From sequence record PZ000613.1: 64,000 bases of DNA. One strand, written 5' to 3'. Under the pieces are notes generated by a model. The model was not told the DNA's origin. It did not search any database and saw only the letters and a list, made by a program, of their open reading frames with translations. This document shows, one piece after another, positions 12,625 to 55,874 of the stretch; positions within the stretch are counted from its first letter, which is position 1; each line of letters starts with the position of its first letter. A program made the position numbers and the translations under genes. This DNA comes from a phage.

Positions 12625-12635
12625 CAGGAGCCTGT

Positions 12636-12809
12636 ATGAGTTGTTTTGGTGGCGGTGAAGTGGATGACGATGATGATATGGAATCTAACGGTACATGTCC
12701 TGATTGTGGATGTGAGACGTGGGATGGCGTGTCAGTGTATCCTGCCTGTAGTTACTCACCAGTGATCTGTAAAACATGTGGAGATCAACCTTGTGACCAG
12801 TCTTGTTAG
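12636..12809 (+). CDS. Small Cys-rich acidic protein (57 aa)
   Basis: SD CAGGAG 5 nt before ATG; 10 cysteines in CPDCGC...CKTCG...PCDQSC. Confidence 0.5.
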   Translation: MSCFGGGEVDDDDDMESNGTCPDCGCETWDGVSVYPACSYSPVICKTCGDQPCDQSC

Positions 12810-12810
12810 T

Positions 12811-13035
12811 GTGTTAATAGCCTATTTAATAGGGTCAGTAGTATCAGGTGTTCTAATTAAGATCATAGATGTTAAAGGTAATCAGTGTTTCAGAGGTTGG
12901 GATGGTGAACCAGATCTCGGAAAGATAGCAGCTATGGTTTTCTTATGGCCTATTATTGCTGTACTGTTTATAGCACTTGTAGCATGGGCTGCCCTTTGGG
13001 ATTTCATCCTTCCTAACAAAAAGTATGAGGACTAA
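12811..13035 (+). CDS. Small membrane protein, LWPI-motif paralog 1 (GTG start)
   Basis: Two hydrophobic segments; shares EPD...M...LWPI motif with 13178-13435. Confidence 0.5.
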   Translation: MLIAYLIGSVVSGVLIKIIDVKGNQCFRGWDGEPDLGKIAAMVFLWPIIAVLFIALVAWAALWDFILPNKKYED

Positions 13036-13166: not shown

Positions 13167-13177
13167 GAGACGATTAA

Positions 13178-13435
13178 ATGGGTTTACTTGATATTTTTAT
13201 CTCAGTTTACTTTATTGGAGTATTCCTTTCTGTTTTAGTGCTGAAACTACTATACAAGAAAGGTCTACTAAAAGGGGTCATTACAACAGGGTCTACCAGC
13301 TCTGAACCTGATGAGATGATGGTTGTGATCTTAATTGTGTTATGGCCCATCTCAATACTGGCAGGAGTCTGTTATCCGATAGGTTGGCTTCTGTCTAAAG
13401 CATATGATGCAGTTATACGTTTTATATTTAAGTAA
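13178..13435 (+). CDS. Small membrane protein, LWPI-motif paralog 2
   Basis: ATG ORF 85 aa with two TM segments, paralogous to 12811-13035. Confidence 0.6.
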   Translation: MGLLDIFISVYFIGVFLSVLVLKLLYKKGLLKGVITTGSTSSEPDEMMVVILIVLWPISILAGVCYPIGWLLSKAYDAVIRFIFK

Positions 13436-14045: not shown

Positions 14046-14300
14046 ATGAAAGTTAACGAGTTGAACAAAACCATCAAGACTGTGAAACTCCACACTCTAA
14101 AGAATGGTGACACATTCCGTAAAGAGGAGAACGGCCCAATCCACATGGTGTGTACTGCGTCGTCTACCAATTGGGTGGAAGTTGCACGAGATCGAATTGT
14201 GTGCGTAAGACTGGAAGATGGCAGTCTGAGTGGTCCGGTTGACGGCATCTCTGTCATACCGGTCAAAGTTGAAGCTAACGTTATTAAGGGTTCTAAATGA
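14046..14300 (+). CDS. Early small-protein paralog family A member
   Basis: VKLHTLKNGDTFR...HMV...VIPV motif. Confidence 0.65.
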   Translation: MKVNELNKTIKTVKLHTLKNGDTFRKEENGPIHMVCTASSTNWVEVARDRIVCVRLEDGSLSGPVDGISVIPVKVEANVIKGSK

Positions 14301-14536
14301 AGATTACAAAGAGAGTGGATCGTGTCCCACTTGAGTCCTTAGAAAACGGGGCCGTGTTTAAGCATCCAGACAGTGACACACTCTATGTTAAAGGTTTTGT
14401 TCACGGCACACCTAATGTGTCCGTAAATAATGGACGTACTCTATCTCTTCGTCTACATGACGGGCTTGTAACAGCACCTGATTCTACGTGCCAAGTTATC
14501 CCTGTGTCAGCTGAACTTTTAGTGAGTGATTGCTAA
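14297..14536 (+). CDS. Early small-protein paralog family A member
   Basis: VPLESLENGAVFK...LYVKG...VIPV motif; ATGA coupling. Confidence 0.65.
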   Translation: MKITKRVDRVPLESLENGAVFKHPDSDTLYVKGFVHGTPNVSVNNGRTLSLRLHDGLVTAPDSTCQVIPVSAELLVSDC

Positions 14537-14781
14537 TGAAAATCATCCCAAAGAAAAAGGATAATACGGTTCGATTGGAAACAATCATTCCCGGAAACCC
14601 TTTCGTGGTTCAGAACGGAAGTGCTTCTCCTCAGTATTATATGAGGGTTGAAAATGCTTCTGGTAATATCCGTATAGCTAGTGGTTGGATTCCTGTAGTG
14701 AATCTATTCACAGGTGTGCTGTGTGTTAAAGGTGCTGACGAACAGGTTGAAATGATTCGTATGTCAGTTGTTCAGGAGTAA
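14536..14781 (+). CDS. Early small-protein paralog family A member
   Basis: VRLETIIPGNPFV...YYMRV...IPV motif; taATG overlap. Confidence 0.6.
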   Translation: MKIIPKKKDNTVRLETIIPGNPFVVQNGSASPQYYMRVENASGNIRIASGWIPVVNLFTGVLCVKGADEQVEMIRMSVVQE

Positions 14782-14783: not shown

Positions 14784-15044
14784 ATGAGCACTATTCATAT
14801 TAAAGTTAAGAGCAAAGAGGAAACAGTCCTCCGTGTTAAAGATCTAAATATGTCAGATGTGTTCACTCTCCAAGAGTGCCATCTTCAAAAGACTTACATG
14901 CTGACAGCCAAGAGTAGGGGCAGTCAACCTGCTGGAGCTGTTAACCTAGGCACTGGAGAACTACGTGTCATCTCTGGTGATATGGTTGTTGGTGAGAAGT
15001 TTAGTAAAGCTGAAATTATCTTAACTCCACAGGAAAACAAATGA
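14784..15044 (+). CDS. Early small-protein paralog family A member
   Basis: LRVKDLNMSDVFT...YMLT motif. Confidence 0.65.
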   Translation: MSTIHIKVKSKEETVLRVKDLNMSDVFTLQECHLQKTYMLTAKSRGSQPAGAVNLGTGELRVISGDMVVGEKFSKAEIILTPQENK

Positions 15045-15263: not shown

Positions 15264-15497
15264 ATGTCTAAAGTAAGCGCAATCGATGCAATCCGTCAAC
15301 CGTTCCAGTTCCAATCCAAATCAACCCAAACCTTCAGTGAACCTAAGCAAATTCGCTTGGGCGGCACGGAGAAAACTGTGTTCGATCTGGCTAAAAACAA
15401 GAGCGTTACCGTAGTTGATGGTGGCACTCTGGTTAACGTTTCCCATCGCATCCGCACTGGCAAAACTGCCAAAGATCGTGCTAAGAAAGGTCTGTAA
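15264..15497 (+). CDS. Hypothetical protein (77 aa)
   Basis: ATG ORF with GGAA SD-like sequence. Confidence 0.55.
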   Translation: MSKVSAIDAIRQPFQFQSKSTQTFSEPKQIRLGGTEKTVFDLAKNKSVTVVDGGTLVNVSHRIRTGKTAKDRAKKGL

Positions 15498-15748
15498 TGC
15501 AAATTTCCAATAAAACACCTCCTGAGCCTACTGTTCAAGTAAAAGATATGACACCGGGAGATGTGTTTCGTTCGGTTGAATATCCGGGGGAATTCTTTAT
15601 CCGAATCCCTTCTGCCTCTGTTGATGGTGTCACTAAGCCGGTAACAGCAGTTCAGTTGAGCACAGGTCATCTCTTCCGTTTAGAGCTTGACATGGCAGCT
15701 ATTCCTGTTCCGACAGCAATCCTCCGCTTCGACGGAGACACAGAGTAA
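15497..15748 (+). CDS. Early small-protein paralog family A member
   Basis: VQVKDMTPGDVFR...FFIRIP...IPV motif; taATG coupling. Confidence 0.6.
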   Translation: MQISNKTPPEPTVQVKDMTPGDVFRSVEYPGEFFIRIPSASVDGVTKPVTAVQLSTGHLFRLELDMAAIPVPTAILRFDGDTE

Positions 15749-29999: not shown

Positions 30000-30533
30000 A
30001 TGGGTTTACTAGGAAGTATTGAACTGCACGATGTAATTGATAATGGCTATCTGGATGCGGAGCATAAGTATGTTAACGCTGCTAGTGTGGATATCCGTAT
30101 TGGTGATACTATCCTTGTTGAAGAACAGGCTGATGGTATCGTTGATATTGATGCGAAAGAGAATCTTCAGTGGAAGGAAGTAAAGATCCCTGAAGAGGGT
30201 TTGGTTATCACTCCGGGTCAGTTCTTCTTGGCTCACTCTATGGAGGAGTTTAACCTTCCAGATAACATCTCAAGTCTGTTTGTTCTGCGTTCGTCTATGG
30301 CTCGTTGTGGTTTGAACCACCTTCACGCCGGTTGGGCAGATGCAGGATTTAATAGCAGTAAGCTGACATTTGAATTCCATAACGTAACCAAGCACCACAG
30401 CTTACGAGTTCGTGCTGGTATGCGTGTTGGTCAGATGGTCATGTTTGAGCACTCTCATGCAGGGGAACACTCCTATGCAGTGAAAGGTCGTTATAATAAC
30501 TCTGAAGGTGTAGTTGCATCTAAGGGTGTGTAA
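30000..30533 (+). CDS. dcd: dCTP deaminase (dUTPase superfamily)
   Basis: Collinear motifs VDIRIG, ITPGQFFLAHSME, LRSSMARCGL, HAGWADAGF versus E. coli Dcd. Confidence 0.8.
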   Translation: MGLLGSIELHDVIDNGYLDAEHKYVNAASVDIRIGDTILVEEQADGIVDIDAKENLQWKEVKIPEEGLVITPGQFFLAHSMEEFNLPDNISSLFVLRSSMARCGLNHLHAGWADAGFNSSKLTFEFHNVTKHHSLRVRAGMRVGQMVMFEHSHAGEHSYAVKGRYNNSEGVVASKGV

Positions 30534-30740
30534 ATGAATAAAGAAGAGTTTCAAGAACTTAGATATTTAACTACCGATGCTCAGTTAAAAGCAATGGTAT
30601 TTGGTCGGGCGTGTCATCGATTTGATACTTGTGATGAAGGTGATAAAGAAGTCTGTAAGCGTTATATGGATAAGAAGCACCTTGAATGGGGTAAAGCTTC
30701 TAATGATCTTTATGACTACATGAAGGGTTTAGTAAAATGA
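30534..30740 (+). CDS. Hypothetical protein (68 aa)
   Basis: ATG 1 nt after upstream stop. Confidence 0.5.
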   Translation: MNKEEFQELRYLTTDAQLKAMVFGRACHRFDTCDEGDKEVCKRYMDKKHLEWGKASNDLYDYMKGLVK

Positions 30741-30934
30741 AAAAGTGGATTGTTCGTGTACATGACAACAAGACAGGTGACATAAACTCTGTAGATTTTG
30801 TTAATACTCGAGAGCACGCTCGTCGAATTAAGAAAACTTTTAAGGGGATAGGTCTGTCAGGTAAGATTACAATAGGAAAAGCTATTGTGAATAGCGAAGG
30901 TGCTTTTATGGCAAATAGTAAGGTTTATTACTAA
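30737..30934 (+). CDS. Tandem paralog family B member 1
   Basis: Shares W.VRV...TR..AR..KK...KV.YY pattern with the next two genes; ATGA coupling. Confidence 0.55.
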   Translation: MKKWIVRVHDNKTGDINSVDFVNTREHARRIKKTFKGIGLSGKITIGKAIVNSEGAFMANSKVYY

Positions 30935-31143
30935 TGAGACCAATCACCATGAGACAGTTCTGGTTAGCAAAGATTAAGTGGGCATCAGGTGGTATGACTA
31001 TGACTGCACTACCCACCCGTCAACAAGCTCGAGAGTTTAAAAAGTCTATGTTCAATGTGGACTTAACTAAGAGTATTAGCATACATAAGGCCAGAGAGTA
31101 TTCCTCTGGTCGTGTTTATATCAGCGGAAAGGTACATTACTAA
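30934..31143 (+). CDS. Tandem paralog family B member 2
   Basis: Same motif pattern, taATG coupling. Confidence 0.55.
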   Translation: MRPITMRQFWLAKIKWASGGMTMTALPTRQQAREFKKSMFNVDLTKSISIHKAREYSSGRVYISGKVHY

Positions 31144-31352
31144 TGAAAAAGATGTGGGCTGTTCGTGTTGTTTGGGAAGATGGACACCATCTAGGTAAAG
31201 ATAATATCAAATTATTTGACACCCGTAAAGATGCTCGTATTGCTAAGAAGAAGATGAAAACTTTAATTGGAACAGTTAAAAGTGCTGACATTCATCGCTG
31301 GTACGAAGACCCTAGCTCGGGTTCTTTTATGTCTAAAGTAATTTACTACTGA
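31143..31352 (+). CDS. Tandem paralog family B member 3
   Basis: Same motif pattern, taATG coupling. Confidence 0.55.
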   Translation: MKKMWAVRVVWEDGHHLGKDNIKLFDTRKDARIAKKKMKTLIGTVKSADIHRWYEDPSSGSFMSKVIYY

Positions 31353-31376
31353 TTGGTAGTAGATATGGTAACTCTC

Positions 31377-31385
31377 AAATGTATA
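31377..31385 (+). promoter_or_regulatory. AAATGTATA, one-mismatch copy of the TAATGTATA candidate phage-sigma promoter element
   Basis: About 40 nt upstream of ATG 31425. Confidence 0.35.
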
Positions 31386-31424
31386 TAGAGTACAATAAGA
31401 ATTTGTATTTTACAGGAGAGAGTT

Positions 31425-31754
31425 ATGTTAGATTTGAGTAAAGTGGCCCCGCCCACTGAAGAGATTACAAAATCCAAGGTGATGCAACAGTTTTATCATC
31501 GTGATATGCTTGGTCGCTTTATCAAGAATCGTGATGTTGTTGCTTGGTCTATCGGTAATCAGGGATATCTGTTGAAGGTTCTTCAGGTTACAGGTTCAAC
31601 TGCTAAGCGTGTTAAGGTGTATGACCCTGAAATGGGGCGTTCTAAGTCAGTAGACCCACAGAACTGCATCGTAATTACCCAGCAGGTAATGGATAATATT
31701 GCACGTAACGTTGCTAACTCAGTTGAACTTGATGGAGAAAACCCAAATGCATAA
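31425..31754 (+). CDS. Hypothetical protein (109 aa)
   Basis: SD GGAGAGAG upstream of ATG. Confidence 0.55.
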   Translation: MLDLSKVAPPTEEITKSKVMQQFYHRDMLGRFIKNRDVVAWSIGNQGYLLKVLQVTGSTAKRVKVYDPEMGRSKSVDPQNCIVITQQVMDNIARNVANSVELDGENPNA

Positions 31755-32310
31755 GAATGTTTTTGATTTACCTGAGATTGGTCGTGACAGCTATAGCATG
31801 TTAGACCGGTCCGACCTATCAATCTCTCGCCTTGAAACAATGCAAGGCATGATTAGTGGAAACAGCCTAGAACACATCCTGAGCTGCTTACAAGCTAACA
31901 TGGAACTCTTGCATATCAAAGCTAAAAACTACCACTGGAACGTCTCTGGTGCAGGATTTCAGGGTGTTCATGGTATGTTTGATGAGCTGGAAGATTACGC
32001 ACGACAAGTAGGAGATCGTATTGCTGAACGTATGCGTTACCACTGTGTTAAAGTGGATGCTACAGCAGCTAACTATCTTTCTCATGCTTGGTTCTCAGAG
32101 GGTAATGCTGATCTAGACATGGACGGTATGCTCTCTGATATGTGCATGACCTTGATGTGTATTATTGAGAAGATGGATGAGTTTGATGGCGATTTAGCCA
32201 CTTACCCTGTCGATCAGAGCATGCTTCAAGAAATTAATGAAGGTCTTGGCAAGTATTGCTACTTCGTCAAGAGCAACATGTCCCATTCAAGTGGTGATGT
32301 GTCTTACTAA
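31747..32310 (+). CDS. Dps-like ferritin-fold protein
   Basis: KNYHWNVSGAGFQGVHGMFDELEDY...DRIAERM matches Dps di-iron site helix pattern. Confidence 0.7.
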   Translation: MHKNVFDLPEIGRDSYSMLDRSDLSISRLETMQGMISGNSLEHILSCLQANMELLHIKAKNYHWNVSGAGFQGVHGMFDELEDYARQVGDRIAERMRYHCVKVDATAANYLSHAWFSEGNADLDMDGMLSDMCMTLMCIIEKMDEFDGDLATYPVDQSMLQEINEGLGKYCYFVKSNMSHSSGDVSY

Positions 32311-32370
32311 AACCTCCGCCCTGTCTCCTAACCCGAGGTGGGGCGAACTTATTTATAAGGATATAGATAT

Positions 32371-32550
32371 ATGTTATCAGCAATCGTATGGGGTATTTGG
32401 GCTATCTTTATCGGTGGTGGTATTTATTGGGCTTCTGGTAAGCTTATTGAAGAAACCCCTGATAAGAAAGGTGAGATTCAAACAGCATCAACTATCATGG
32501 TTATCGTAGCTGTTGTTATCCCATTCCTGCTTCACATCCTGATTGCATAA
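32371..32550 (+). CDS. Small two-TM membrane protein (59 aa)
   Basis: ATG with AAGGA SD; track ORF 32237-32509 in another frame judged less likely. Confidence 0.4.
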   Translation: MLSAIVWGIWAIFIGGGIYWASGKLIEETPDKKGEIQTASTIMVIVAVVIPFLLHILIA

Positions 32551-32559
32551 GGTTCTTAA

Positions 32560-32730
32560 ATGAAGGACGAATACAAAGCTCACACGGTGATTGTTTGTCA
32601 ATGTGTGATGGCATTGGGGGCTACTAAAAAGATAGCTGAGGATTTAGCCAAAGCTCAAGGGTATAAAGATTACATCGTAATCCCTACCACAGAACGCCAC
32701 CTTAAAGAATTTGTTAACGAGGATTGTTAA
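32560..32730 (+). CDS. Small hypothetical protein (56 aa)
   Basis: ATG ORF; stop overlaps thioredoxin start. Confidence 0.4.
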   Translation: MKDEYKAHTVIVCQCVMALGATKKIAEDLAKAQGYKDYIVIPTTERHLKEFVNEDC

Positions 32731-33002
32731 TGTCTAAAGTAATTAAGTTTTATAGTGATCAGTGTGCTCCATGTAAAGCAATGGCTCCTACCTTTGAGAA
32801 GGTTGTTAAGGAGTTTGATGTAGAAGTGGAAGAGATTAATATCCTTGAAGGTGATGGTCGTGAACAAGCTGTTAAGTATGGTGTACGAAGCATCCCTGCT
32901 TTCGTTGTGCCTGACCGTAACAGTGGCGCACACTACAGCCTCTCTGGTATGCAGACTGAAGCAAATCTGAAAGCATTTTTAGATACAGCACTCAGGGGGT
33001 AA
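32730..33002 (+). CDS. Thioredoxin-like protein
   Basis: Active-site CAPCK in FYSDQCAPCKAMAP; about 90 aa. Confidence 0.7.
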   Translation: MSKVIKFYSDQCAPCKAMAPTFEKVVKEFDVEVEEINILEGDGREQAVKYGVRSIPAFVVPDRNSGAHYSLSGMQTEANLKAFLDTALRG

Positions 33003-33008
33003 GTAAAC

Positions 33009-33236
33009 ATGAAGATTCTTAAGTCAGGCTCCACTTTGTTATGGGCAATTACTATATCAAACAAAAATCCTGAGTTAGATCAAAAACCGATTGTTTCTTT
33101 TTTCGAAACTAGACAGCGTGCACGAGATCGAGTAAAAGATCTGAGATCTGTAAGAGTCCATATGAACGTATCTATGCACAAATGCATCATCTCTAAAGTA
33201 GGGATTATCACTATTTTACATAAGAAAGAATATTAA
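33009..33236 (+). CDS. Hypothetical protein (75 aa)
   Basis: ATG ORF, co-oriented. Confidence 0.5.
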   Translation: MKILKSGSTLLWAITISNKNPELDQKPIVSFFETRQRARDRVKDLRSVRVHMNVSMHKCIISKVGIITILHKKEY

Positions 33237-33251
33237 TAAGGATATTCACGG

Positions 33252-33908
33252 ATGAATGAACAACTACAAGCAACATTAATCGAAGCTATGGGAAGTGATC
33301 GTAGCGTAGTCAACGCAGCTCGAGTTTCCTTTGGCGTAACCCGTGAAGGTGATTTAAATGAACGTGATGAACGTCTCATCAACTTCCTCGCAAGAGAGAA
33401 GCATGTTACCCCATTCCGACACCCGCAAGTCAGTTTCCGATGCAAAGCACCTATCGCAATTGCGAGACAGCTGGGCAAGCATCAGGTTGGATTCTCGTGG
33501 AACGAAATGTCCCGGCGGTATAAAGATGGAGCAGTTGAAGTCTTCATCCCTAAAGAGATTTTTGCGAGACCTTCGGACCTCCATGCAGGTTCAGGGGTTC
33601 AGCTCATCGACGGAGAGCGAGCTGAAGCATTAATGTTAATTAACGATGCATATGAAGCTTCTCTAGCAGCATATGACAAGTTGATTGAGTTTATTGCACC
33701 AGAGCAAGCCCGATTTGTACTCCCTCAGGGGATGATCACTGAGTGGGTGTGGACTGGTTCTTTGTATGGATGGTTTGAGTTGTGTCGTCAGCGACTCTCC
33801 TCTCACGCTCAATATGAAGTTCGAGTGTTTGCTCAATCTCTGGATGAAGAGATGGCTAAACTCTACCCAATCTCATGGGCAGCTCTGAAGAAAACTTTGG
33901 AGAGCTAA
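33252..33908 (+). CDS. thyX: FAD-dependent thymidylate synthase ThyX
   Basis: ThyX signature RHPQVSF...SRRY (RHRxxS...SxRY); SD AAGGA. Confidence 0.9.
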   Translation: MNEQLQATLIEAMGSDRSVVNAARVSFGVTREGDLNERDERLINFLAREKHVTPFRHPQVSFRCKAPIAIARQLGKHQVGFSWNEMSRRYKDGAVEVFIPKEIFARPSDLHAGSGVQLIDGERAEALMLINDAYEASLAAYDKLIEFIAPEQARFVLPQGMITEWVWTGSLYGWFELCRQRLSSHAQYEVRVFAQSLDEEMAKLYPISWAALKKTLES

Positions 33909-33909
33909 G

Positions 33910-34155
33910 ATGGTTAGGAAGGATATTTGGATTCTGAGGCGCGTTGAAGTCACGGACAGAGGTGAAGACATAGAAGTACTTTGCTCTTTCACTGACTACC
34001 CTACAAAACAACAGATTGAGGATGTTGGAGTAGAAGAGAGTGTTTCTCAATCTCTTTTTGATAAAAAAGTTTCCAAGTCAACAGCCCCATTCTTTGGTTA
34101 TTATTATACACTTGACAGCGTGGAATTACTGTCCAATGGTTCTTGTTTGGAGTGA
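33910..34155 (+). CDS. Hypothetical protein (81 aa)
   Basis: ATG 2 nt after thyX stop. Confidence 0.5.
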   Translation: MVRKDIWILRRVEVTDRGEDIEVLCSFTDYPTKQQIEDVGVEESVSQSLFDKKVSKSTAPFFGYYYTLDSVELLSNGSCLE

Positions 34156-34298
34156 TAATATTGGAAGAGGAAAATGATGATGATGTGTTCTGCACCAAGT
34201 GTGGGATGACAGTTGATGATGCATATGACCCAAGTGTAGAAATTTGCCCTTGTTGTGGAGTATGTGAATATTGCTGTTCCCACAACTCAGAGGATTAG
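34152..34298 (+). CDS. Small Cys-rich zinc-finger-like protein (48 aa, GTG start)
   Basis: CTKCG...CPCCGVCEYCCSH cysteine cluster; overlaps upstream stop. Confidence 0.3.
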   Translation: MIILEEENDDDVFCTKCGMTVDDAYDPSVEICPCCGVCEYCCSHNSED

Positions 34299-34310
34299 CA
34301 GGAATTTCTG

Positions 34311-34544
34311 ATGAAAATCAAACATATTACAGATATTCAGGAGGCATTTAGAATGCTTCCTCGAAGAGAGAAGGATAAGATTAAAAAGCTTATTCAAGTT
34401 TATGGTCATACATCTAAAAATGATGTAGACTATATGCCTTCTACTTTCGTAGAGTGTGGGATTGCTCGCGGTTTCACATTCGACCATAAAGTGTTTCAGC
34501 AATTTGTTGACCACTGGAGAAAAGATGGAAAAGAAAGTCTGTAG
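34311..34544 (+). CDS. Hypothetical protein (77 aa)
   Basis: SD AGCAGGAA upstream of ATG. Confidence 0.5.
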   Translation: MKIKHITDIQEAFRMLPRREKDKIKKLIQVYGHTSKNDVDYMPSTFVECGIARGFTFDHKVFQQFVDHWRKDGKESL

Positions 34545-34710
34545 CTTCTGTAAGAAAGAGAAGCCTGTCGCCAACTTTAAACCTAATCTTGTAACCGGTC
34601 TGACTCATGTCATGTGTCACTCTTGCAGGATATATCTTGAAACAAAGCACACTATCAATAGGTTGCATTATTATCACCCAACAACATTCAAATTTAAGGT
34701 TGTGAAATGA
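34525..34710 (+). CDS. Small Cys4 zinc-finger protein (61 aa)
   Basis: CSFCKK...CHSCR motif; internal ATG. Confidence 0.45.
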   Translation: MEKKVCSFCKKEKPVANFKPNLVTGLTHVMCHSCRIYLETKHTINRLHYYHPTTFKFKVVK

Positions 34711-34910
34711 AAACTTTGTGGACTCTTGACTGCCAAGATGATGACGGAGAGCGTTGGACTTGGAAATATTTCCTAGGGAAACCAACACCCGATAACCCTG
34801 CTTTGGATTGTGCTTCGTATGAAGATGCTAAGAAATTAGTAAATGGAGAAAAGGTTTGGTCTCCAGATAATGAAGTTCAATACTTTTTAACAGAACGGAA
34901 ATTTTCATAA
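34707..34910 (+). CDS. Hypothetical protein (67 aa)
   Basis: ATGA coupling. Confidence 0.5.
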   Translation: MKTLWTLDCQDDDGERWTWKYFLGKPTPDNPALDCASYEDAKKLVNGEKVWSPDNEVQYFLTERKFS

Positions 34911-35233
34911 TGATCGACGGTAATACATTTAGGACTTCAAATGGAAGTGAGATAAGTCCCGCTGAAGTAATCAATCGGCATAGAAGGCAATTGATCATCC
35001 ATTCCTATTTGTATTACTGGTTGGATGACCCTATCTGGTCTGATGATAAATGGCAACAAGTTGCTAACGATCTAGTGGAGCTGCAAGCTCTGTATCCAGA
35101 ACCTACCGGAGTCTTTGACAATGAATTCAGAGATTGGGATGGTTCTACAGGTATGCATCTCCCACATAACGAAGCTGTTGCTTGTATGGCGACAGCTGTT
35201 TACAGACTTCATAAAGAGGTTAACGTCGCATGA
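34910..35233 (+). CDS. Hypothetical protein (107 aa)
   Basis: taATG coupling. Confidence 0.55.
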   Translation: MIDGNTFRTSNGSEISPAEVINRHRRQLIIHSYLYYWLDDPIWSDDKWQQVANDLVELQALYPEPTGVFDNEFRDWDGSTGMHLPHNEAVACMATAVYRLHKEVNVA

Positions 35234-35430
35234 GCGTAGTTTATGTTCTAGAAAGATACGCTGAAGATCACAACAGTATTGTTGCCATATTTAAATATGC
35301 CCCGGATGTTGAGGACATTTTGAATGTGACTCACTTAACTGATGTTGATAAAATCAAAGACCTCATCAGGAATGACAATGCCCACATAGGTGACTCTCTG
35401 TGGTCTCTTACTGAATGGACATTGTGGTGA
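35230..35430 (+). CDS. Hypothetical protein (66 aa)
   Basis: ATGA coupling. Confidence 0.5.
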   Translation: MSVVYVLERYAEDHNSIVAIFKYAPDVEDILNVTHLTDVDKIKDLIRNDNAHIGDSLWSLTEWTLW

Positions 35431-35612
35431 AGTGCTCTAAATGTGAAGGAACCAACCTTCATTTAAGTAACAAGGTTATCAGAGAGCTTGCCAAAGGCTC
35501 TCCAACCAAAGGGAAGAACAAACGATTTACTAACGTCAGGGTTTATACAGCAATCTGTAAAGACTGCTTAACTACTGAGTGTCATTACGAAGAAATTGGA
35601 GAGCGTAAATGA
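35415..35612 (+). CDS. Small zinc-ribbon protein (GTG start)
   Basis: CSKCEG...CKDCLTTEC. Confidence 0.45.
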   Translation: MDIVVKCSKCEGTNLHLSNKVIRELAKGSPTKGKNKRFTNVRVYTAICKDCLTTECHYEEIGERK

Positions 35613-36346
35613 GTCGTCGTCAATCACGGAAAGAATCACGGAAAGACCTTCGTCGGGAAGCACTTGTTACTCGTAAAGGTAAGCGAGAGTATGAAGAGGT
35701 GGTTTTAGCAAAGCCTGTAGTCCCTCAGAACCAGTTTCAGTCTGAGCTACTCAATGCTATTAAGACTAAACAAGTTGTGTTCACAGACGCTCCTGCGGGC
35801 TGTGGTAAGACCTTTGTAATCACTTCCACAGTTATTGATGCACTGAAGAGCGGTAAGATTCAGAAGATCATCCTGAGTCGACCTTCAGTTGGCATGGGCA
35901 ATTCTCTTGGGTTACTTCCGGGAGGAATGCGTGAAAAGTTTGAACCGTACCTGATGCCTATTATTGATGTTATTACTCAGCGATACGGTAAGGGGTTCTA
36001 TGAATGCCAAATCGGAAATGGTAACATTGAATTCGTACCTCTGGAATACCTCCGTGGTCGTTCTTTCAATGATGCCATTGTTATCGTGGATGAGTTCCAG
36101 AACACCACTAAAGATGAAGCCTTCTCAATCATGACTCGATTGGGAGAAACCTCTCAGTTGTTCTGTATGGGTGATACAAACCAGCATGATATGCGTGGTC
36201 GTGAGAGTGGTCTTACTTGGGCTACGAACTTTATTGATGAACATGATTTGTATGAGTTCGCTGAGATTGTGGATGGTGAATCAGATGACATTGTTCGTTC
36301 TGGTTTCTGTAAAGCGATTGTTAAAGCGATGGAAAAGAAAGCTTAA
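35609..36346 (+). CDS. phoH: PhoH-like ATPase
   Basis: Walker A DAPAGCGKTF; Walker B IVIVDEFQN; PhoH-like GDTNQ block. Confidence 0.85.
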   Translation: MSRRQSRKESRKDLRREALVTRKGKREYEEVVLAKPVVPQNQFQSELLNAIKTKQVVFTDAPAGCGKTFVITSTVIDALKSGKIQKIILSRPSVGMGNSLGLLPGGMREKFEPYLMPIIDVITQRYGKGFYECQIGNGNIEFVPLEYLRGRSFNDAIVIVDEFQNTTKDEAFSIMTRLGETSQLFCMGDTNQHDMRGRESGLTWATNFIDEHDLYEFAEIVDGESDDIVRSGFCKAIVKAMEKKA

Positions 36347-36357
36347 ATAGTAACTTA

Positions 36358-36366
36358 TAATGTATA
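36358..36366 (+). promoter_or_regulatory. TAATGTATA, candidate phage-sigma-dependent promoter element
   Basis: Exact 9-mer 36 nt upstream of ATG 36403; recurs upstream of other genes on both strands. Confidence 0.4.
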
Positions 36367-36402
36367 CTCCTTAGTGTACACTGATATATTAAGGAGTTCT
36401 AA

Positions 36403-36720
36403 ATGGCAGACCATGTAGGAAAGAGAGATTATGCACAAGAAAGACGTACCGCAATTGCCCGTGGTGAAACAGGCGTTGGGAGCAAGAGCGGAGATGCTCA
36501 GCGCCACCGTGCACGTCGCATCGTTGAAAAGCGCGATGGAAAAGCTGCTATCAGAGGTAAGGACGTTGGACACAAACGAGCTGTCAAGTCTGGAGGCTCT
36601 AATGCGTCAAGCAACTTACGTGTTGAATCAGTCAGCTCAAACCGTTCAAACGGCGGCAAAAGTGGTGATCGAGCTGGAAAAGCAAACGGAGCTAGGAAGG
36701 GGGCGTTGAGTGGTTCTTGA
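36403..36720 (+). CDS. Hypothetical basic Gly/Ser/Arg-rich protein (105 aa)
   Basis: Strong SD TAAGGAG 6 nt before ATG; alternative frame 36431-36709 lacks SD. Confidence 0.45.
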   Translation: MADHVGKRDYAQERRTAIARGETGVGSKSGDAQRHRARRIVEKRDGKAAIRGKDVGHKRAVKSGGSNASSNLRVESVSSNRSNGGKSGDRAGKANGARKGALSGS

Positions 36721-37201
36721 TGACACCCTATCTTACGATGCGGTCACAGGTAACCTATACTACACAAGATCTCCAAGCAAAGGAGCGATGTGGAACAAAA
36801 GCCATCCCGGAAAGATAGCTGGGTGTAGGATATCGAAAGGTTATATAGGTGTGTATTTCCAAGGAAGACAATGGAGAGCGCACCGACTTATAGCTACACA
36901 CTTTATACCAAACCCTAACAATTATCCAGAAGTCAACCACATTAATGGGGTAAAAGACGATAATCGACTGGAGAATCTTGAATGGGTATCCGCTTCTGAA
37001 AACATACAACATTCCTTTGATATAGGATTGAATAAAGGACATATTCGTGACAATAACGGAATGACCAAGCTATCCTCTGGAGATGTTGTAAAGATCAAAC
37101 AGATGTATGTGAAGGGTTCTAGGGATTTTGGCTCTAGAGGTCTTGGTAAGCTGTTTGGCGTGAGCCATACAGCTATACTCCATGCTTTAAAGGAGCTTTA
37201 A
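36710..37201 (+). CDS. HNH homing endonuclease
   Basis: AHRLIATHF...VNHINGVKDDNRLENLEW HNH motif. Confidence 0.7.
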   Translation: MVLDDTLSYDAVTGNLYYTRSPSKGAMWNKSHPGKIAGCRISKGYIGVYFQGRQWRAHRLIATHFIPNPNNYPEVNHINGVKDDNRLENLEWVSASENIQHSFDIGLNKGHIRDNNGMTKLSSGDVVKIKQMYVKGSRDFGSRGLGKLFGVSHTAILHALKEL

Positions 37202-37219
37202 GCTCATAAAGAGGTTATA

Positions 37220-37513
37220 GTGTCAGCAGAAACAAAAAGATGTACAATTCACACTTACTGTAAATTCTGTAAAGCAGAGGGTGTAAAAAGAGTTGCAACT
37301 TTAATGACCAAGTATTCTCCAATTAGGGGGTACAGGGACAACTATAAGCACTACTCTTGCAGTGATCACTCCCATCTGTTAGAAGATACAGATCCGAATA
37401 GAACAAGGAGAGAGCATAACATCAACCTGAGAGCTACTCTCAAGGAGATGAAAAACAGCTCTCGGAACAACCATTACACTGAAGCTGACTATCAAACTTG
37501 GCTTCGTCTCTAG
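37220..37513 (+). CDS. Hypothetical Cys/His-rich protein (GTG start)
   Basis: ORF 97 aa with CTIHTYCKFC...CSDHSH. Confidence 0.45.
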   Translation: MSAETKRCTIHTYCKFCKAEGVKRVATLMTKYSPIRGYRDNYKHYSCSDHSHLLEDTDPNRTRREHNINLRATLKEMKNSSRNNHYTEADYQTWLRL

Positions 37514-37516
37514 AAC

Positions 37517-37549
37517 AAAGGCTGCCTAATCGGGTGGCCTTTTCTTTTA
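37517..37549 (+). terminator. Rho-independent terminator
   Basis: AAAGGCTGCC...GGTGGCCTTT hairpin plus TTTCTTTT. Confidence 0.6.
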
Positions 37550-37582
37550 TATAAACTAAATTAAACTTCTTAGGTAATAACT

Positions 37583-37831
37583 ATGTCTATTGTAAAAACT
37601 GTAACTATTATTGATGTAATGCCTATCCGTCTTGTTAAGTGGAAATTCACTAATAATCACGGCATTGCTGATATCATTGCAAACCAGATTAGCCACAACC
37701 CAAAAACAGCTCGTACTAACGTAATCCTCCGTGGTGCTGACGGGAAGTTCATTTCTTATAAGAATAAAGATGTAGAGAAAGATTTTCGTGTTGCAGTAGA
37801 AAACCTCATCCCATTCCCTAAAGGAGTTTAA
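37583..37831 (+). CDS. Tandem paralog family C member 1
   Basis: Shares KTARTNV.LRGADGKFISY...PFPKG with next gene. Confidence 0.6.
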   Translation: MSIVKTVTIIDVMPIRLVKWKFTNNHGIADIIANQISHNPKTARTNVILRGADGKFISYKNKDVEKDFRVAVENLIPFPKGV

Positions 37832-37832
37832 T

Positions 37833-38117
37833 ATGAATAAGTTAGCTATGGTTCAAATTCGGGACACATACCCTAACCGCCCGGAGCAGAAACCGCGTAC
37901 TTGGTCTTATCTGTTGGCTGAAAGTAAGACTATTGACAAATACGCTGTAGGAATTGATGCTATCCCAACTAGTATCACATTGCTCCCTCACAAAACAGCC
38001 AGAACCCATGTGATGTTACGTGATAGTAAAGGTAAGTTTATCTCTTATCGTGATTCACGAATCAATAATGAAATTAAATCTGCTATGGAATTTTTGATGC
38101 CATTCCCGAAAGGTTGA
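37833..38117 (+). CDS. Tandem paralog family C member 2
   Basis: KTARTHVMLRDSKGKFISY...PFPKG. Confidence 0.6.
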   Translation: MNKLAMVQIRDTYPNRPEQKPRTWSYLLAESKTIDKYAVGIDAIPTSITLLPHKTARTHVMLRDSKGKFISYRDSRINNEIKSAMEFLMPFPKG

Positions 38118-38120
38118 GTG

Positions 38121-38279
38121 ATGAAAGAATACATTTACGTAGGACAGCGCTGGTTCGGTGATGAATGGGAAGGTGGATACAGCGTTGTGAAAGCTTTTAA
38201 GTCTGAAGAAGATGCCAAGTCATGGGTCTTAAAAGACGACGTTGGCGAGAGAACTTACATTGAAGTAGAGGTGGAGTAG
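38121..38279 (+). CDS. Small hypothetical protein (52 aa)
   Basis: ATG with AGGTTGAG upstream; stop 2 nt before next ATG. Confidence 0.4.
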   Translation: MKEYIYVGQRWFGDEWEGGYSVVKAFKSEEDAKSWVLKDDVGERTYIEVEVE

Positions 38280-38280
38280 G

Positions 38281-38703
38281 ATGCCATTACCAGCTAGACA
38301 CCAAAACCGTTTCTTAGTTCTAAAGTGGGATGATATCGAAATGAATCTCACTGAACATGAACTAGATTTGTTCCATGAACTATTATCAGAGATTCGCTCT
38401 GGTATTCCTGAACGTCAGTATGTGGTTATCAGCGATAAACACCCTCAAGAGTTTGAAGAAGCTTGGGGTATGAAGCTAGCTTACATTCAAAGAGCTATTC
38501 GAGAAAGGGAAGAGGTTGCTAATCAGAGAGTTGTGGCTCATCTGGTACGAGAACAACCTCGTGAAGCCAGAGCTACACATACACCTCCTCCGCCCCCTCC
38601 TTGGACAGTTGTCAACGGGACGGTTAGGGCTTATAGTGATGAAGCAACTATGCTGAATGTAGTAGAAGATAACCAAGCATTTACAGATTTACTTTACCAA
38701 TAA
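38281..38703 (+). CDS. Hypothetical protein with poly-Pro tract (140 aa)
   Basis: ATG ORF; THTPPPPPPW. Confidence 0.55.
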   Translation: MPLPARHQNRFLVLKWDDIEMNLTEHELDLFHELLSEIRSGIPERQYVVISDKHPQEFEEAWGMKLAYIQRAIREREEVANQRVVAHLVREQPREARATHTPPPPPPWTVVNGTVRAYSDEATMLNVVEDNQAFTDLLYQ

Positions 38704-38719
38704 TTTAAAGGAGTATAAA

Positions 38720-40564
38720 GTGAGCAACCCGGACGCTCTTCCATTTTTGACAGAGATGACTGTCGCTGATATAATCTCTAAGCAAGCAAAGCACGGAGTG
38801 AGTTTCAACCGAAGAAATGCTCGGTGGTATGTTCACCTCCTTAAAGAGATTATTGTTAATATTGACAGAGAGTTGATTCCTCTCTTACCTAAGATGAGAT
38901 TAGACGGCTCTACTTATATGAAGCCGTTTAAGAAGTCTGGAGCTTTACAGAAGTGGCCTCAAGCCTATTGTGATAGGGTTGGGCTGAAGAGAGAAGATAT
39001 TGGTGGAGCTTTCACCTGTGTCGAATACGTAGACTTTGACCCATCGAAAGATGCACGAGTTAAAGAAGCTCTTATGGATGAGGGCTTTCTTCCTCCAGAG
39101 TTTAACGTATCTAAGAAGCCTTGGAATACTTTCGAAATTAAGAAAGATATGAGAAAGTATGGAACATATCAAGCATGGTATACTGCTTGGATGCGAGGCA
39201 ATGCTAAGCAGAAGCAGACAGCCGAGATGGTTGACGCTGATATTAAGAAGTTCTTAGAAAAGCATTTCAGGTTTAAGACTAAGAACTATATGAAGGCTTA
39301 CGTATTTGGTTTAGGATTAAACCCTAATCGCCGTAACCCTGTAACGTTTGATGAGATTAAGAAAGCACTAGCCACATCAAACAAGTGGCCTACAGCTCCT
39401 ACAAACCTCGAGGAGACTCTTGAAGAAGGGTTAGGGGGTGAGCTAGGGAGTGTTGGAAGTTTGCTTAAGAGACGCGTTGTAGCGGCTCACAGGCTAGGTC
39501 TTATCAGTGGACTCATAGCAAAGGAACGCGAAGATGGTAAACTTTCGGCAGAAGCTAACAGCTGCGCTACGCCAACTTTTCGATTCAAACATCGTATCGT
39601 GGTTAATATTCCCTCCCGTGGTTTGTTTGGTCACGAGTGTCGCAGTTTGTTTGAGTCTGACTATAACTCAGACAGTGATCACTCTCGTCCTTTCGTTATT
39701 ACTAACGTTGTTCCTGATGGTTGTTATATACGAAAAGGTACTAACGTAATTTATGAGAAAGGTAAGCCGGGGAAGAAAGATAAACCTATAGGTGCTTACA
39801 AATATTACATACCCGCTGGTAAAGAAGTATTCTTAGGGTATGATGGTTCTGGACTTGAACTTCGTATGCTCGCTCACTACCTCATTAAAGAGTGTAGAGA
39901 TATGCTTGCTGAGGCAATTGAAGAGAACAATCCAGCTAAGAAAGCTCTGGCAGAACGTGGTTTAGCTTCTGCTATTATGTATCGTGATATCCTTCTTGAA
40001 GGTGATATCCACTCCCACAACCAGAAACTTGCTGGCCTTCCTACTCGTGACAACGCTAAAACGTTTATCTATGCATTCAACTATGGTGCTGGCGACGCTA
40101 AGCTTGGCTCAATTGTAGGTGGTGGGGCTGACGAAGGTTCAGTGATGCGAGCACGTTTCTTAGCAGAGAACCCATGTATTGCAATCCTCATTGATCGTAT
40201 GACAGAGAAAGCTGCTCAGGGATACTTGATTGGTGTTGATGGTCGTAAGATTACAATGAGAAGAGATGCCACTGGTAAAGTTATGGTTCATAAAGCCCTT
40301 AACACACTTCTGCAATGTGCTGGTGCTGTTGTTATGAAATACGCTATGATGTTCCTTAACAAGTGGATTGAGAAGGATGGGGTTCGTTGTGCTAAGGTAA
40401 TTGATATGCACGATGAGGGCCAATTCTCAGTGAACCGTAATGATGTACAGAAACTCAAAGAACACACTGAGCTTTGTGTTAAGAAAGCTGGTGAGTACTT
40501 GAACATGGAATGTCCTCTGGCTTCTGATTGTCAGATTGGATTAAATTGGATGCATACGCACTAA
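38720..40564 (+). CDS. Family-A DNA polymerase, polymerase domain only (GTG start)
   Basis: Motif A DGSGLELRMLAHY, motif B RDNAKTFIYAFNYGAG, motif C VIDMHDEGQF; SD AAGGAG 6 nt upstream; no exonuclease domain in this ORF. Confidence 0.85.
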   Translation: MSNPDALPFLTEMTVADIISKQAKHGVSFNRRNARWYVHLLKEIIVNIDRELIPLLPKMRLDGSTYMKPFKKSGALQKWPQAYCDRVGLKREDIGGAFTCVEYVDFDPSKDARVKEALMDEGFLPPEFNVSKKPWNTFEIKKDMRKYGTYQAWYTAWMRGNAKQKQTAEMVDADIKKFLEKHFRFKTKNYMKAYVFGLGLNPNRRNPVTFDEIKKALATSNKWPTAPTNLEETLEEGLGGELGSVGSLLKRRVVAAHRLGLISGLIAKEREDGKLSAEANSCATPTFRFKHRIVVNIPSRGLFGHECRSLFESDYNSDSDHSRPFVITNVVPDGCYIRKGTNVIYEKGKPGKKDKPIGAYKYYIPAGKEVFLGYDGSGLELRMLAHYLIKECRDMLAEAIEENNPAKKALAERGLASAIMYRDILLEGDIHSHNQKLAGLPTRDNAKTFIYAFNYGAGDAKLGSIVGGGADEGSVMRARFLAENPCIAILIDRMTEKAAQGYLIGVDGRKITMRRDATGKVMVHKALNTLLQCAGAVVMKYAMMFLNKWIEKDGVRCAKVIDMHDEGQFSVNRNDVQKLKEHTELCVKKAGEYLNMECPLASDCQIGLNWMHTH

Positions 40565-53840: not shown

Positions 53841-54809
53841 TTAAGTACTAGCCAACCCACCGATTACACCCCCAGCTAATGCACCCCAAGGCCCAAACGC
53901 AGAGCCTGCTGCTGCACCGCTCATGGCCCCACCTAAGAAGCCACCACTACCACCAGATTGTTTTGTAGTTGTAGTTTGTCCGAGAGCACCGTTAAGTACA
54001 CCTGCTGCACCGAGTTGGTTATTGATGTCTTGCCATCCCCAATTAGCTGCGTTCTGAGCGTTCTGGTAGGCATTATCATATTCATTCTGTTGTTGCTGTT
54101 GTTGCTGCAAACCTGCATTCCACTGATTCATGATTTGCTGTTGAGACAAATTAGCACTCTGCTGACCTAGGTTAGAAAGGTTAGAACCAATATTAGAAAG
54201 ACCTGAGAGAGCAGCTGCCTGATTCTGTCTATTACCAGAGAGGATACTTTCAGCTTGGCTAATAGCCGAGTTATAGGCACTATTGGTAATATCTGTTGCT
54301 TGATTTTGCATCTGATTTAGAGCGTCACCTTGAGCGAAAGACTTAGCCATACGAGCACCCGAACCCTGTTGACCAGCAAATTGTTGAGCTAACTGAGGAA
54401 GAGCATTACGTGCTAAGTTCTGTTGAACCTGTTCGTTATTAGCTGTAATGGCTGCTTGCACAGCGTCATCATCATACAATTGACCAGCGAGAGCACCAAT
54501 TTGTTCTCCAGTAATCCCACCTTGTCCAGAGAGGCTTTGATAGCCTTTATAGGCATTATCTAGATAACCCAAGCCTTGACTTGCTGCATCCATGTATTGC
54601 TGTGAGAGAGTGCCTAGAGCGCCAGATTGTGCTAGGTTATTAAGTGCCTCTGTCTGATTATTATTAAACACTACATTATCTCGATAAACATAATCCCCTG
54701 AACTAGTATTACCAATCTGCTTATTAAGCTGGTCAATATACTGTTGAATGTATTCAGGGCGAATCATTTGGGAAGTAGTTTTACTACCTCCGCCTCCGAA
54801 TAAAGCCAT
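53841..54809 (-). CDS. Q/N/Gly-rich low-complexity virion protein, paralog 1
   Basis: MALFGGGGSKTTSQ N-terminus, poly-Q tract, Gly-rich hydrophobic C-terminus; SD AGGAGA. Confidence 0.7.
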   Translation of the reverse strand: MALFGGGGSKTTSQMIRPEYIQQYIDQLNKQIGNTSSGDYVYRDNVVFNNNQTEALNNLAQSGALGTLSQQYMDAASQGLGYLDNAYKGYQSLSGQGGITGEQIGALAGQLYDDDAVQAAITANNEQVQQNLARNALPQLAQQFAGQQGSGARMAKSFAQGDALNQMQNQATDITNSAYNSAISQAESILSGNRQNQAAALSGLSNIGSNLSNLGQQSANLSQQQIMNQWNAGLQQQQQQQNEYDNAYQNAQNAANWGWQDINNQLGAAGVLNGALGQTTTTKQSGGSGGFLGGAMSGAAAGSAFGPWGALAGGVIGGLAST

Positions 54810-54821: not shown

Positions 54822-55874
54822 TTAGTTTGCTCCGAATGCCCCTAAGACCCCACCTAAGATATTACTACCTGCTGTGGATAACCAGTTAGACTGACCTCTC
54901 TGTTGAGAAAGATTAGAACCTCCAATCATAGGACCAGCCATGCCAGATTGCCCACCTGAATTATTATAGGAACTCCAAGCATTCTGAGTCTGTTGGTTAG
55001 GAGAGAAAGCGCCCATACGACCTGCAATACCTAATCCAGTAATACCAGCACCGAGAATCTGCTGTCCTGTGTTAACACCCGGAGCGGCATTCTTAATTGT
55101 ATATCCAGCCATTGGACTTACACTGTTTAATACATTAAGTTGGTTGTTAAGCTGATTCCATCCATACTGCTGAGAGCCAATAGCGTTCTGCCAATTAATA
55201 TCAGCTTGAGCCTGAGCTTGCTGCTGTTGTAGATTACCAGCCATGAGTTGATTCTGGATGGCTTGTTGAGTTGCTTGAACACCCTGAGCACCAAGATTGA
55301 GATTCTGTCCAGCCAACCCTGACTGAGCACCAAGTAAGCCTCTCTGGAAGTTTTGGTCTTGTTGAAGAGCACTGATTCCCATGTTCTTACCACTGATAGT
55401 ACGAGCTAAGTTTGTATTAGCACCGTTCAGGGCAGCACCTTGAGCAGCAGCTCTACGAAGAGAGCCAGAGTCGGAGCCATTTCCGAGAGATACATTGGAA
55501 GCTGCCTTACTAGTAGCTTGAGCAAGAGCTGAGTTATTCAACCCTTTACTAAAGTTATTAACACCATCAGCAGTTAGACCACCACCATTGACAATATTCT
55601 GATACTGTTGAGCAAGAGCGTTTAGTTGGTCCAGTCCTTGCTGTGTACGAGGTGTGTACATATCAGCCAATTGCTTCTGAGTTGTAGAAGCTGCTAAGTT
55701 ATTCAGAGCACCCTGTTGGTTGCCATTAAACCCAGCCAGCTGTTGGGAGATGAATCCCGGATCGTTGTTCTGCATATTCTGAGCATTAGCAACAATCTGC
55801 TTCAGCAGGGCATCAACCTGAGAGGAAGGGGCCACTGTGGTTTTGCTAGAAGCTGATTTTCCAAATAAAGACAT
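54822..55874 (-). CDS. Q/N/Gly-rich low-complexity virion protein, paralog 2
   Basis: MSLFGKSASSKTT N-terminus, Q/N/G-rich, Gly-rich C-terminus; SD AAGGAGG. Confidence 0.7.
   Translation of the reverse strand: MSLFGKSASSKTTVAPSSQVDALLKQIVANAQNMQNNDPGFISQQLAGFNGNQQGALNNLAASTTQKQLADMYTPRTQQGLDQLNALAQQYQNIVNGGGLTADGVNNFSKGLNNSALAQATSKAASNVSLGNGSDSGSLRRAAAQGAALNGANTNLARTISGKNMGISALQQDQNFQRGLLGAQSGLAGQNLNLGAQGVQATQQAIQNQLMAGNLQQQQAQAQADINWQNAIGSQQYGWNQLNNQLNVLNSVSPMAGYTIKNAAPGVNTGQQILGAGITGLGIAGRMGAFSPNQQTQNAWSSYNNSGGQSGMAGPMIGGSNLSQQRGQSNWLSTAGSNILGGVLGAFGAN

Follow-up and report, generated by a model that had tools for sequence, protein, structure and literature searches.

Kuraviruses have been collected and used both as therapeutic and as model coliphages, and roughly half of their genes are still without an assigned function. 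Multi-copy families of small genes are common in virulent phages, and the early-gene families of the large coliphages are made up of short, coupled genes that have been locally duplicated and have diverged, and whose number varies between relatives. The closest described counterparts of the genes considered here are five genes of phage phiEco32 (phi32_71, 70, 69, 57 and 56), all annotated as hypothetical, and two protein groups of the PHROGs database, phrog_4939 and phrog_6814, neither of which has a function recorded there. We have compared with them a stretch of phage DNA of 64,000 nucleotides (nt; sequence record PZ000613.1), to which we refer at its full length as the window, and we describe two families of small genes in it, family A (phrog_4939, genes A1 to A4) and family B (phrog_6814, genes B1 and B2), together with a more doubtful pair of small membrane protein genes, C1 and C2, which we call set C (Table 1). 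The best overall explanation, to which we give a probability of about 0.6, is that the small, strongly basic, soluble proteins of A and B belong to two families restricted to one lineage, that the copies within each are old duplicates, and that they may divide between them the binding of a common class of acidic partner.

The DNA of the window is 93–95% identical to that of phiEco32, SU10 and WFI101126, and it is placed as that of a Kuravirus-like Escherichia coli podophage. A megablast search with positions 30000–39000 against 50,697 phage records matched 99 records at 80–99% identity, nearly all of them Escherichia phages with the addition of three Shigella phages, and including phiEco32, SU10, NJ01 and WFI101126; the matched phages are Gordonclarkvirinae, a group that comprises the genera Kuravirus, Nieuwekanaalvirus and Suseptimavirus. 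The gene order is that of the relatives, in which early genes are followed by a replication and nucleotide-metabolism module on the + strand and, beginning near 47.7 kb, by structural genes on the − strand. The five phiEco32 genes are orthologous both by position and by sequence to A1–A3 and to B1 and B2, and the flanking genes and promoter positions are alike in the two phages. For family A we distinguish two positions, slot 1 directly after the dCTP deaminase gene (dcd) and slot 2 directly upstream of thyX, and phiEco32 differs from the window in having no slot 2 copy. A1–A4 share the length class and phage group of phrog_4939, but that record contains neither the two-slot arrangement, nor the ortholog groups, nor the copy-number variation seen here; to phrog_6814 the window adds the arrangement as a tandem pair, unequal rates of evolution of the two copies, and loss of the second copy in some relatives. 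Unlike the arrays of the large coliphages, the duplications here are old and the ortholog groups are stable across genera, and the places of family A, next to dcd and thyX, are constant across two phage families.

The original prediction, made by a model from the letters and their open reading frames, had proposed that three consecutive coupled genes at 30737–31352 share the pattern W.VRV...TR..AR..KK...KV.YY. The three reading frames lie where they were placed, and both pairwise and profile comparisons bear out their relationship. BLASTP expect values (E) are 6e-8 for A1/A2, 1e-4 for A1/A3 and 1.5e-7 for A2/A3, Smith-Waterman z scores for the trio are 6–11 against full shuffles and 3.8–10 against shuffles that preserve local composition, and a fourth gene, A4, matches A1 and A2 with E values of about 2e-5. 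All four match phrog_4939 over its full length (from positions 1–4 to 67 of the 67-position profile). None of the four window copies departs from the W, the T-R, the A-R, one K or the C-terminal Y, and in a family alignment of 70 sequences the W, TR, AR and K are fixed or almost so, with a nearly invariant C-terminal Y. These alignments confirm A1–A4 as true paralogs, with A4 situated outside the tandem block. The genes of the block lie head to tail; the start of A1 overlaps the upstream gene in ATGA, and the A1/A2 and A2/A3 stop and start codons overlap in TAATG, although A2 may instead begin at the ATG at 30949 (64 residues), as it is annotated in WFI101126, rather than at 30934. A4 is most closely related to a metagenomic protein (P0001) that is 99% identical and is its sole near-identical match, and its best match among the 50,697 phage records has 36% identity.

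For family B, too, the proposed sharing of KTARTxVxLRxxxGKFISY...PFPKG between two adjacent genes at 37583–38117 was upheld. In the C-terminal 53 residues, BLASTP finds 49% identity between B1 and B2, with E values of 3e-15 in a pairwise comparison and 3e-13 against all 491 open reading frames of the window, and shuffle tests give Smith-Waterman z scores of 17–22. They can be aligned from the first residue over their entire length, with an insertion of about 11 residues in B2, and both match phrog_6814 at full length (starting at position 1 and ending at 85 or 86 in a profile of 86 positions). In the family alignment the residues T, R, T, R, G, F, S and Y do not vary, and these comparisons confirm B1 and B2 as paralogs forming a tandem pair. 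Orthologs of B1 are 55–89% identical to the window protein, and B2 is only 36–40% identical between genera. Relative to phiEco32, the window has an extra HNH endonuclease and one further gene before B1; the HNH-type endonuclease gene (36710–37201) and a 97-residue cysteine-rich open reading frame (37220–37513) lie between the phi32_58 ortholog and B1, and in relatives HNH genes are found at many different sites of the same module.

Table 1. Positions of the small genes and of the expression signals near them in the window (aa, amino acids; HMM, hidden Markov model; pI, isoelectric point).
Feature	Coordinates	Strand	Remarks
A1, 65 aa, phiEco32 gp71 ortholog	30737..30934	+	phrog_4939 E 2.2e-26; family HMM E 7e-31; pI 10.2
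A2, 69 aa, phiEco32 gp70 ortholog	30934..31143	+	phrog_4939 E 2.8e-27
A3, 69 aa, phiEco32 gp69 ortholog	31143..31352	+	phrog_4939 E 6.6e-27; last gene before the middle promoter
A4, 75 aa, diverged, between thioredoxin and thyX	33009..33236	+	phrog_4939 E 4.1e-7; family HMM E 1e-21
B1, 82 aa, phiEco32 gp57 ortholog	37583..37831	+	phrog_6814 E 2.4e-37; faster-evolving copy
B2, 94 aa, phiEco32 gp56 ortholog	37833..38117	+	phrog_6814 E 4.8e-37
C1, ~80 aa, two hydrophobic segments	12793..13035	+	hydropathy peaks at residues 4-22 and 45-63; two homolog clusters
C2, 85 aa, two hydrophobic segments	13178..13435	+	three homolog clusters; possible distant relative of C1
AAATGTATA, match to gp36-sigma promoter element (P68 position), 25 nt after A3	31377..31385	+	motif search
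TAATGTATA, match to gp36-sigma promoter element (P58 position)	36358..36366	+	exact match, upstream of the phi32_58 ortholog 36403-36720
Intrinsic-terminator-like hairpin with T run, directly upstream of B1	37517..37542	+	11-bp stem (5 G-C pairs), 4-nt loop, tail TCTTTTATAT

The ratio of nonsynonymous to synonymous substitution rates (dN/dS) was calculated by the Nei-Gojobori method among orthologs from up to nine genomes, at a median dS of 0.5–1.1. Median values are 0.33 for A1, 0.29 for A2, 0.27 for A3, 0.40 for B1 and 0.12 for B2, and 0.06–0.07 for dcd and thyX. Because the ratios are well below 1 among orthologs, the A and B genes are translated and constrained, yet they evolve several times faster than the adjoining enzymes. 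It could be argued that such small reading frames are over-annotated and that their repeated pattern derives from non-coding sequence, since they are short, their products were not detected in SU10 proteomics, and the ribosome-binding site of B1 is weak. However, dN/dS of 0.1–0.4 over many ortholog pairs at this level of synonymous divergence, frames that are intact in all relatives examined, tightly coupled stop and start codons, AlphaFold2 models of good confidence for A and moderate confidence for B, and conservation that resides in the protein and not in the DNA effectively refute this idea already, and we consider its chances to be next to nil. At the C-termini of both families the conserved codons also supply the Shine-Dalgarno sequence for the gene that follows (30920–30937, 31129–31146, 37818–37832 and 38104–38120), with the family A motif K-V-x-Y encoded by AAGGT...TAATG and the family B motif P-K-G encoded by AAAGGAG or AAAGG directly before the next start, and because these conserved codons have a double role, conservation of the C-termini may in part be a constraint at the nucleotide level.

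The duplications are old. Paralogous copies share 23–49% protein identity, and within 30500–33300 the DNA shared between family A copies amounts to only 18–20 nt, located at gene starts and junctions; the junction repeats are AAGGTTTATTACTAATGA and AAGGTACATTACTAATGA, 209 nt apart. No direct repeats were found within 37500–38200 or 12600–13500. Recent tandem duplication was accordingly considered and rejected, since the copies have no extended DNA identity. The description of these genes as tandem paralog sets is appropriate for the trio and for the pair at 37583–38117, but it needs amendment in that the fourth member of family A lies outside the block and that the duplications are not of recent date.

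Comparison with related phages, proposed originally as a check, did reveal variation in copy number. With HMMs of the families, nine genomes of isolates and four metagenomic contigs were scanned, duplicates of a contig being counted once. Three slot 1 copies and one slot 2 copy are present in the window, WFI101126, NJ01 and KBNP1711, three and none in phiEco32 and KarlSchell_Bas89, two and none in SU7, and two in each slot in EK010 and a related metagenomic contig. One distant metagenomic contig has three and none and another has one and none, contig L009 has a single slot 2 copy, with slot 1 not covered, and Salmonella phage PKM.Hi.22.6, a member of the Grimontviridae, has none in slot 1 and one in slot 2. 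Two slot 1 copies and no slot 2 copy were detected in pEC-N1203-2Af.1, where slot 1 is only partly covered and the locus lies at base 1 of the circular record. Among these relatives slot 1 therefore ranges from 0 to 3 copies and slot 2 from 0 to 2, with one or two copies of family B. A2, A3 and B1 are present in every Gordonclarkvirinae genome scanned by HMM, and by tblastn A2 and family B sequences are each found in 99 phage records, with at least one family B copy in all 99. Matches of the B2 type, covering at least 80% of the query, are missing from seven of these 99 records, the HMM-verified absence being only that in KarlSchell_Bas89, which has B1 only.

A neighbor-joining tree of 39 family A copies from 13 genomes and contigs places A1, A2 and A3 in separate ortholog groups that cluster by position and not by genome. 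Sequences from Kuravirus, Nieuwekanaalvirus and Suseptimavirus occur in both the A2 and the A3 group, and the A1 group does not include Suseptimavirus. The A2/A3 and B1/B2 splits are placed before the divergence of the three Gordonclarkvirinae genera. The tree also places the A3 genes of KBNP1711 and phiEco32 as almost identical, even though the two phages belong to different genera, and this, together with the rarity of the window's A4 allele among phage records, is taken as a sign of allele exchange. The ancestral position of family A was probably that of the single copy upstream of thyX, which is shared with PKM.Hi.22.6, and the simplest history would have this copy duplicated into the dcd slot and then expanded to two and subsequently three copies within the Gordonclarkvirinae. 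Copy number still changes, and there would be two routes for this, unequal recombination at the gene junctions, where 18 nt are conserved, and the transfer of entire alleles from one phage to another. Families A and B would then represent old duplications within the phiEco32-like phages whose copies have been retained separately under purifying selection, and we regard the paralogy and this evolutionary history as highly probable. Such old, side-by-side duplicates are an ordinary kind of finding, a routine example of genes that duplicate and diverge, and the families had already been clustered as PHROGs. We also note that the interval between the thioredoxin gene and thyX (33003–33251) is a variable slot, being empty in phiEco32 and occupied by one family A gene in the window. 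SU7, pEC-N1203-2Af.1 and EK010 have an open reading frame of 155–163 residues there that is annotated as 'baseplate wedge subunit' or hypothetical, and EK010 additionally has two family A genes in it.

A word-index search of 5.8 billion clusters yielded 93 family A and 83 family B clusters, the long contigs among them measuring about 70–80 kb, as a Kuravirus genome does, and an exhaustive profile search with the family A alignment against 1.84 billion representatives yielded 27 proteins, all 65–79 residues long, and no longer or multi-domain protein containing a family A domain. The distant family A representatives that were looked up have the gene order of the window around them, with DnaB, an exonuclease, a nucleotidyltransferase, Dcd, A copies, a Dps-like protein, thioredoxin, A copies and ThyX in succession, and a tblastn search with the distant representative P0204 gave no close match in any isolated phage. 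From their occurrence in these searches, families A and B are confined to phiEco32-like phages, with family A also found in one phage of the Grimontviridae. A literature search found no paper on these genes or on Kuravirus paralog families.

The AlphaFold2 model of A3, built from the family alignment, has a predicted local distance difference test score (pLDDT) of 88, with strands at residues 2–11 and 22–25, a helix at 28–39 and further strands at 45–56 and 60–63; the model of B2 is moderate (pLDDT 78.6). Foldseek searches of BFVD returned only family members and uncharacterized proteins, from Aeromonas phage LAh_8, Salmonella phage SE131 and Cronobacter phage vB_CsaP_009. Going by its name, LAh_8 would be a Lahexavirus (a genus of the Grimontviridae in the taxonomy), and this would agree with the wider distribution. 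DUF2188 and the N-terminal domain of HicB/UPF0150 are superficially similar in size and pattern, with a first strand that starts with W or Y, a second strand, and a helix that begins with T/S-x-x-E/D-A, but no Pfam-A match near the gathering score places either family with DUF2188 or the HicB-like proteins.

The two families appear to be expressed from different transcription units. The consensus of the phiEco32 gp36 promoters is tAATGTAtA, and such promoters are situated upstream of genes 58 and 68 (PMC8948821). At the corresponding positions of the window, AAATGTATA marks the end of the transcription unit holding A1–A3, and TAATGTATA heads the middle unit that extends toward the B genes. Exact copies of TAATGTATA in the window are located at 36358 and 42773 on the + strand and at 42701 and 52143 on the − strand, and matches with one mismatch occur at chance level (20 observed and 19.9 expected). 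Coding sequences (CDS) 69–125 of SU10 are early and CDS 25–68 are middle (PMC4281155), and by position A1–A3 are SU10 CDS 69–71. Because of the positions of the gp36-type promoters and the SU10 classes, A1–A3 are assigned as the last genes of the early (sigma-70) unit, and B1 and B2 to the middle unit upstream of the DNA polymerase gene. The terminator-like hairpin upstream of B1 is a strong one and separates the inserted 97-residue reading frame from B1, and a terminator is annotated at the same place in WFI101126.

The nature of the conserved residues may point to a function of these proteins in the replication and nucleotide module. Products of both families have pI values of 9.9–10.6 and net charges of +6 to +9. 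In family A, the only helix of the model presents the conserved R28, A31, R32 and K35 on the same side, as judged by helix periodicity, with the conserved T27 just before it, and it is the hairpin of strands 1 and 2 and the C-terminal hairpin that differ between paralogs. The invariant T-A-R-T-x-V-x-L-R-x-x-x-G-K-F-I-S-Y segment of family B lies on the central strands of its model, and the N-terminal half of the protein varies. Each family would thus retain one invariant basic surface, with the remainder varying between copies; the copies may bind acidic partners of one kind, of which nucleic acid is the likeliest, and the paralogs may split the task between them, possibly as hetero-oligomers formed from the products of translationally coupled genes. 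We favor the binding of an acidic partner because of the combination of an invariant basic surface with variable surroundings, the tight translational coupling, and the conservation throughout the group, and we put forward this division of binding between copies tentatively, as a proposed mechanism whose chances are well below even.

There are several observations that weigh against the account as a whole. Many small phage proteins have a high pI, and this property argues only weakly for binding to nucleic acid; the best Pfam match among 70 family A and 62 family B members has an E value of 0.013, with none near the cut-off; NCBIfam and PDB sequence searches with both families gave no match, even at E ≤ 10. 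The neighbor-joining tree rests on about 66 columns and was not bootstrapped. Mass spectrometry of SU10 preparations detected 34 proteins, none of them from either family, from which we conclude that the products are not abundant virion components, and no more than that. The adjacency to dcd and thyX may reflect a conserved overall gene order and not a functional link, and phiEco32, SU7 and KarlSchell_Bas89 keep thyX without a slot 2 copy. Lastly, dN/dS values 4–6 times those of the neighboring enzymes would also fit proteins that track a changing host target.

This last point leads to a different proposal, in which the products of families A and B are host-takeover or anti-defense inhibitors, the paralogs block different host proteins or different variants of one host system, and an arms race drives the turnover of copy number and alleles. 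The proteins are small, early or middle, without known relatives, and faster evolving than the adjoining enzymes by the factor given above; their copy number varies among close relatives, and they have mosaic alleles, including the rare slot 2 allele of the window. However, near-universal presence (A2, A3 and B1 in all HMM-scanned Gordonclarkvirinae genomes, and the 99 phage records) at fixed positions, and the keeping of a family A slot in a different phage family, are more typical of core functions, and dN/dS is well below 1 in every copy. Classic DNA-mimic inhibitors are acidic, and the basic A and B proteins are unlike them. We consider an inhibitor role unlikely, though it is the main rival of our account, and the rate of evolution and the turnover in copy number would suit it.

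A role as accessory or regulatory partners of ThyX and dCTP deaminase, for example in assembling a complex that synthesizes deoxynucleoside triphosphates, could be considered for family A, because a distance of 14–15 nt separates an A gene from the thyX that follows it, both in the window and in Suseptimavirus-like and distant metagenomic contigs as well as the Grimontviridae Salmonella phage, with the thyX-adjacent proteins across these only about 36% identical, and because dcd is in every case the immediate upstream neighbor of the other slot. We think this quite improbable. The several phages noted above have thyX but no slot 2 copy, the Grimontviridae phage has dcd but no slot 1 copies, and since gene order is conserved across the whole module, adjacency to either gene carries little weight. 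A bolder version of our own account would make phrog_4939 a new class of small basic binding protein, an ancient and integral part of the nucleotide and replication module in phiEco32-like and 7-11-like podophages, anchored upstream of thyX and expanded in particular lineages to three or four copies that would form a hetero-oligomeric factor that might be chromatin-like, might organize replication, or might regulate ThyX or Dcd; as a whole this is improbable.

Whichever role applies, old duplicates in two families remain the preferred reading of these genes, and six or more of the small Kuravirus genes without an assigned function reduce to two old conserved families with fixed positions, so that the number of separate unknown genes is smaller. 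Family A is tractable, with its length of about 70 residues, a confident predicted fold, and conservation beside thyX across two phage families, and the natural series of copy numbers in the two slots constitutes a ready-made set of knock-outs.

The third set is of a different nature. An EPD...LWPI motif had been noted in two small membrane proteins at 12811–13035 and 13178–13435, and this motif is indeed shared, but the homology is marginal and the first start has been revised: the GTG at 12793 is more likely to be the start of C1 than 12811, since a GGAG precedes it at 9 nt and the homologs have a matching N-terminus. The two proteins have their hydrophobic segments at the same positions and share several features in the same order, with Y-x-IG in the first transmembrane segment, a K-K-G loop, EPD just before the second segment, and LWPI inside it. 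We suggest that they are possibly related cassette genes, sporadically distributed small membrane proteins and not products of local duplication. The alternative is convergence or composition, with two unrelated two-helix membrane proteins sharing a few identities by chance, and we rate it only a little short of even. Consistent with it, there is no phmmer match between C1 and C2 at E ≤ 1 and none in a default BLASTP search of the window's open reading frames, the Smith-Waterman z score falls to 3.6 against local-composition shuffles (12 of 2000 reach the score), a comparison by hhalign of profiles from only five homolog clusters, a small number for a decisive comparison, gives a probability of 24%, and no PHROG family covers both proteins. 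Against it are the near-equal lengths and the common order of features, the hhalign P value of 8.5e-4, the z score of 5.1 against full shuffles (none of 2000 reaching the score), and the EPD and W-P residues, which are not driven by composition.

Relative to WFI101126, C2 is carried by a cleanly bounded indel of 263 bp (window 13167–13428), whose flanks are 90–98% identical and abut in WFI101126, and because this segment is present in few relatives, C2 looks acquired and not locally duplicated. The body of C1 is replaced in WFI101126 by an unrelated soluble open reading frame; both this and the absence of the C2 segment from most relatives also suit two unrelated genes. Contiguous coverage of C1 and C2 is found only in phage MN05 (2 of 109 matching records), and the five homolog clusters of the set are the only ones among the 5.8 billion.

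The genome is clearly rich in small paralogs. Thirteen of the 94 small genes in the window fall in four multi-member PHROG families, with four each in phrog_4939 and phrog_7832, three in phrog_6570 and two in phrog_6814. We also observe an early-region superfamily on the + strand (8819–9163, 12254–12475, 14046–14300, 14297–14536, 14530–14781, 14784–15044 and 15497–15748), which numbers six genes or more in the interval from 8.8 to 15.7 kb, encoding about 73–86 residues, one member being the C-terminal part of a 114-residue open reading frame, and which cross-matches phrog_7832, 6570, 16423, 8365, 12612 and 7431. This is presumably the group that the original prediction had called family A, and is not the phrog_4939 family to which we have given that name. 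Paralogy extends to larger genes as well, in that two adjacent structural genes on the − strand (53841–54809 and 54822–55874) are 32% identical over 274 residues (BLASTP E 6e-9; phmmer E 6e-12). For the ortholog of the former, the WFI101126 annotation notes a similarity to a putative DNA injection protein; the ortholog of the latter is annotated there as hypothetical.

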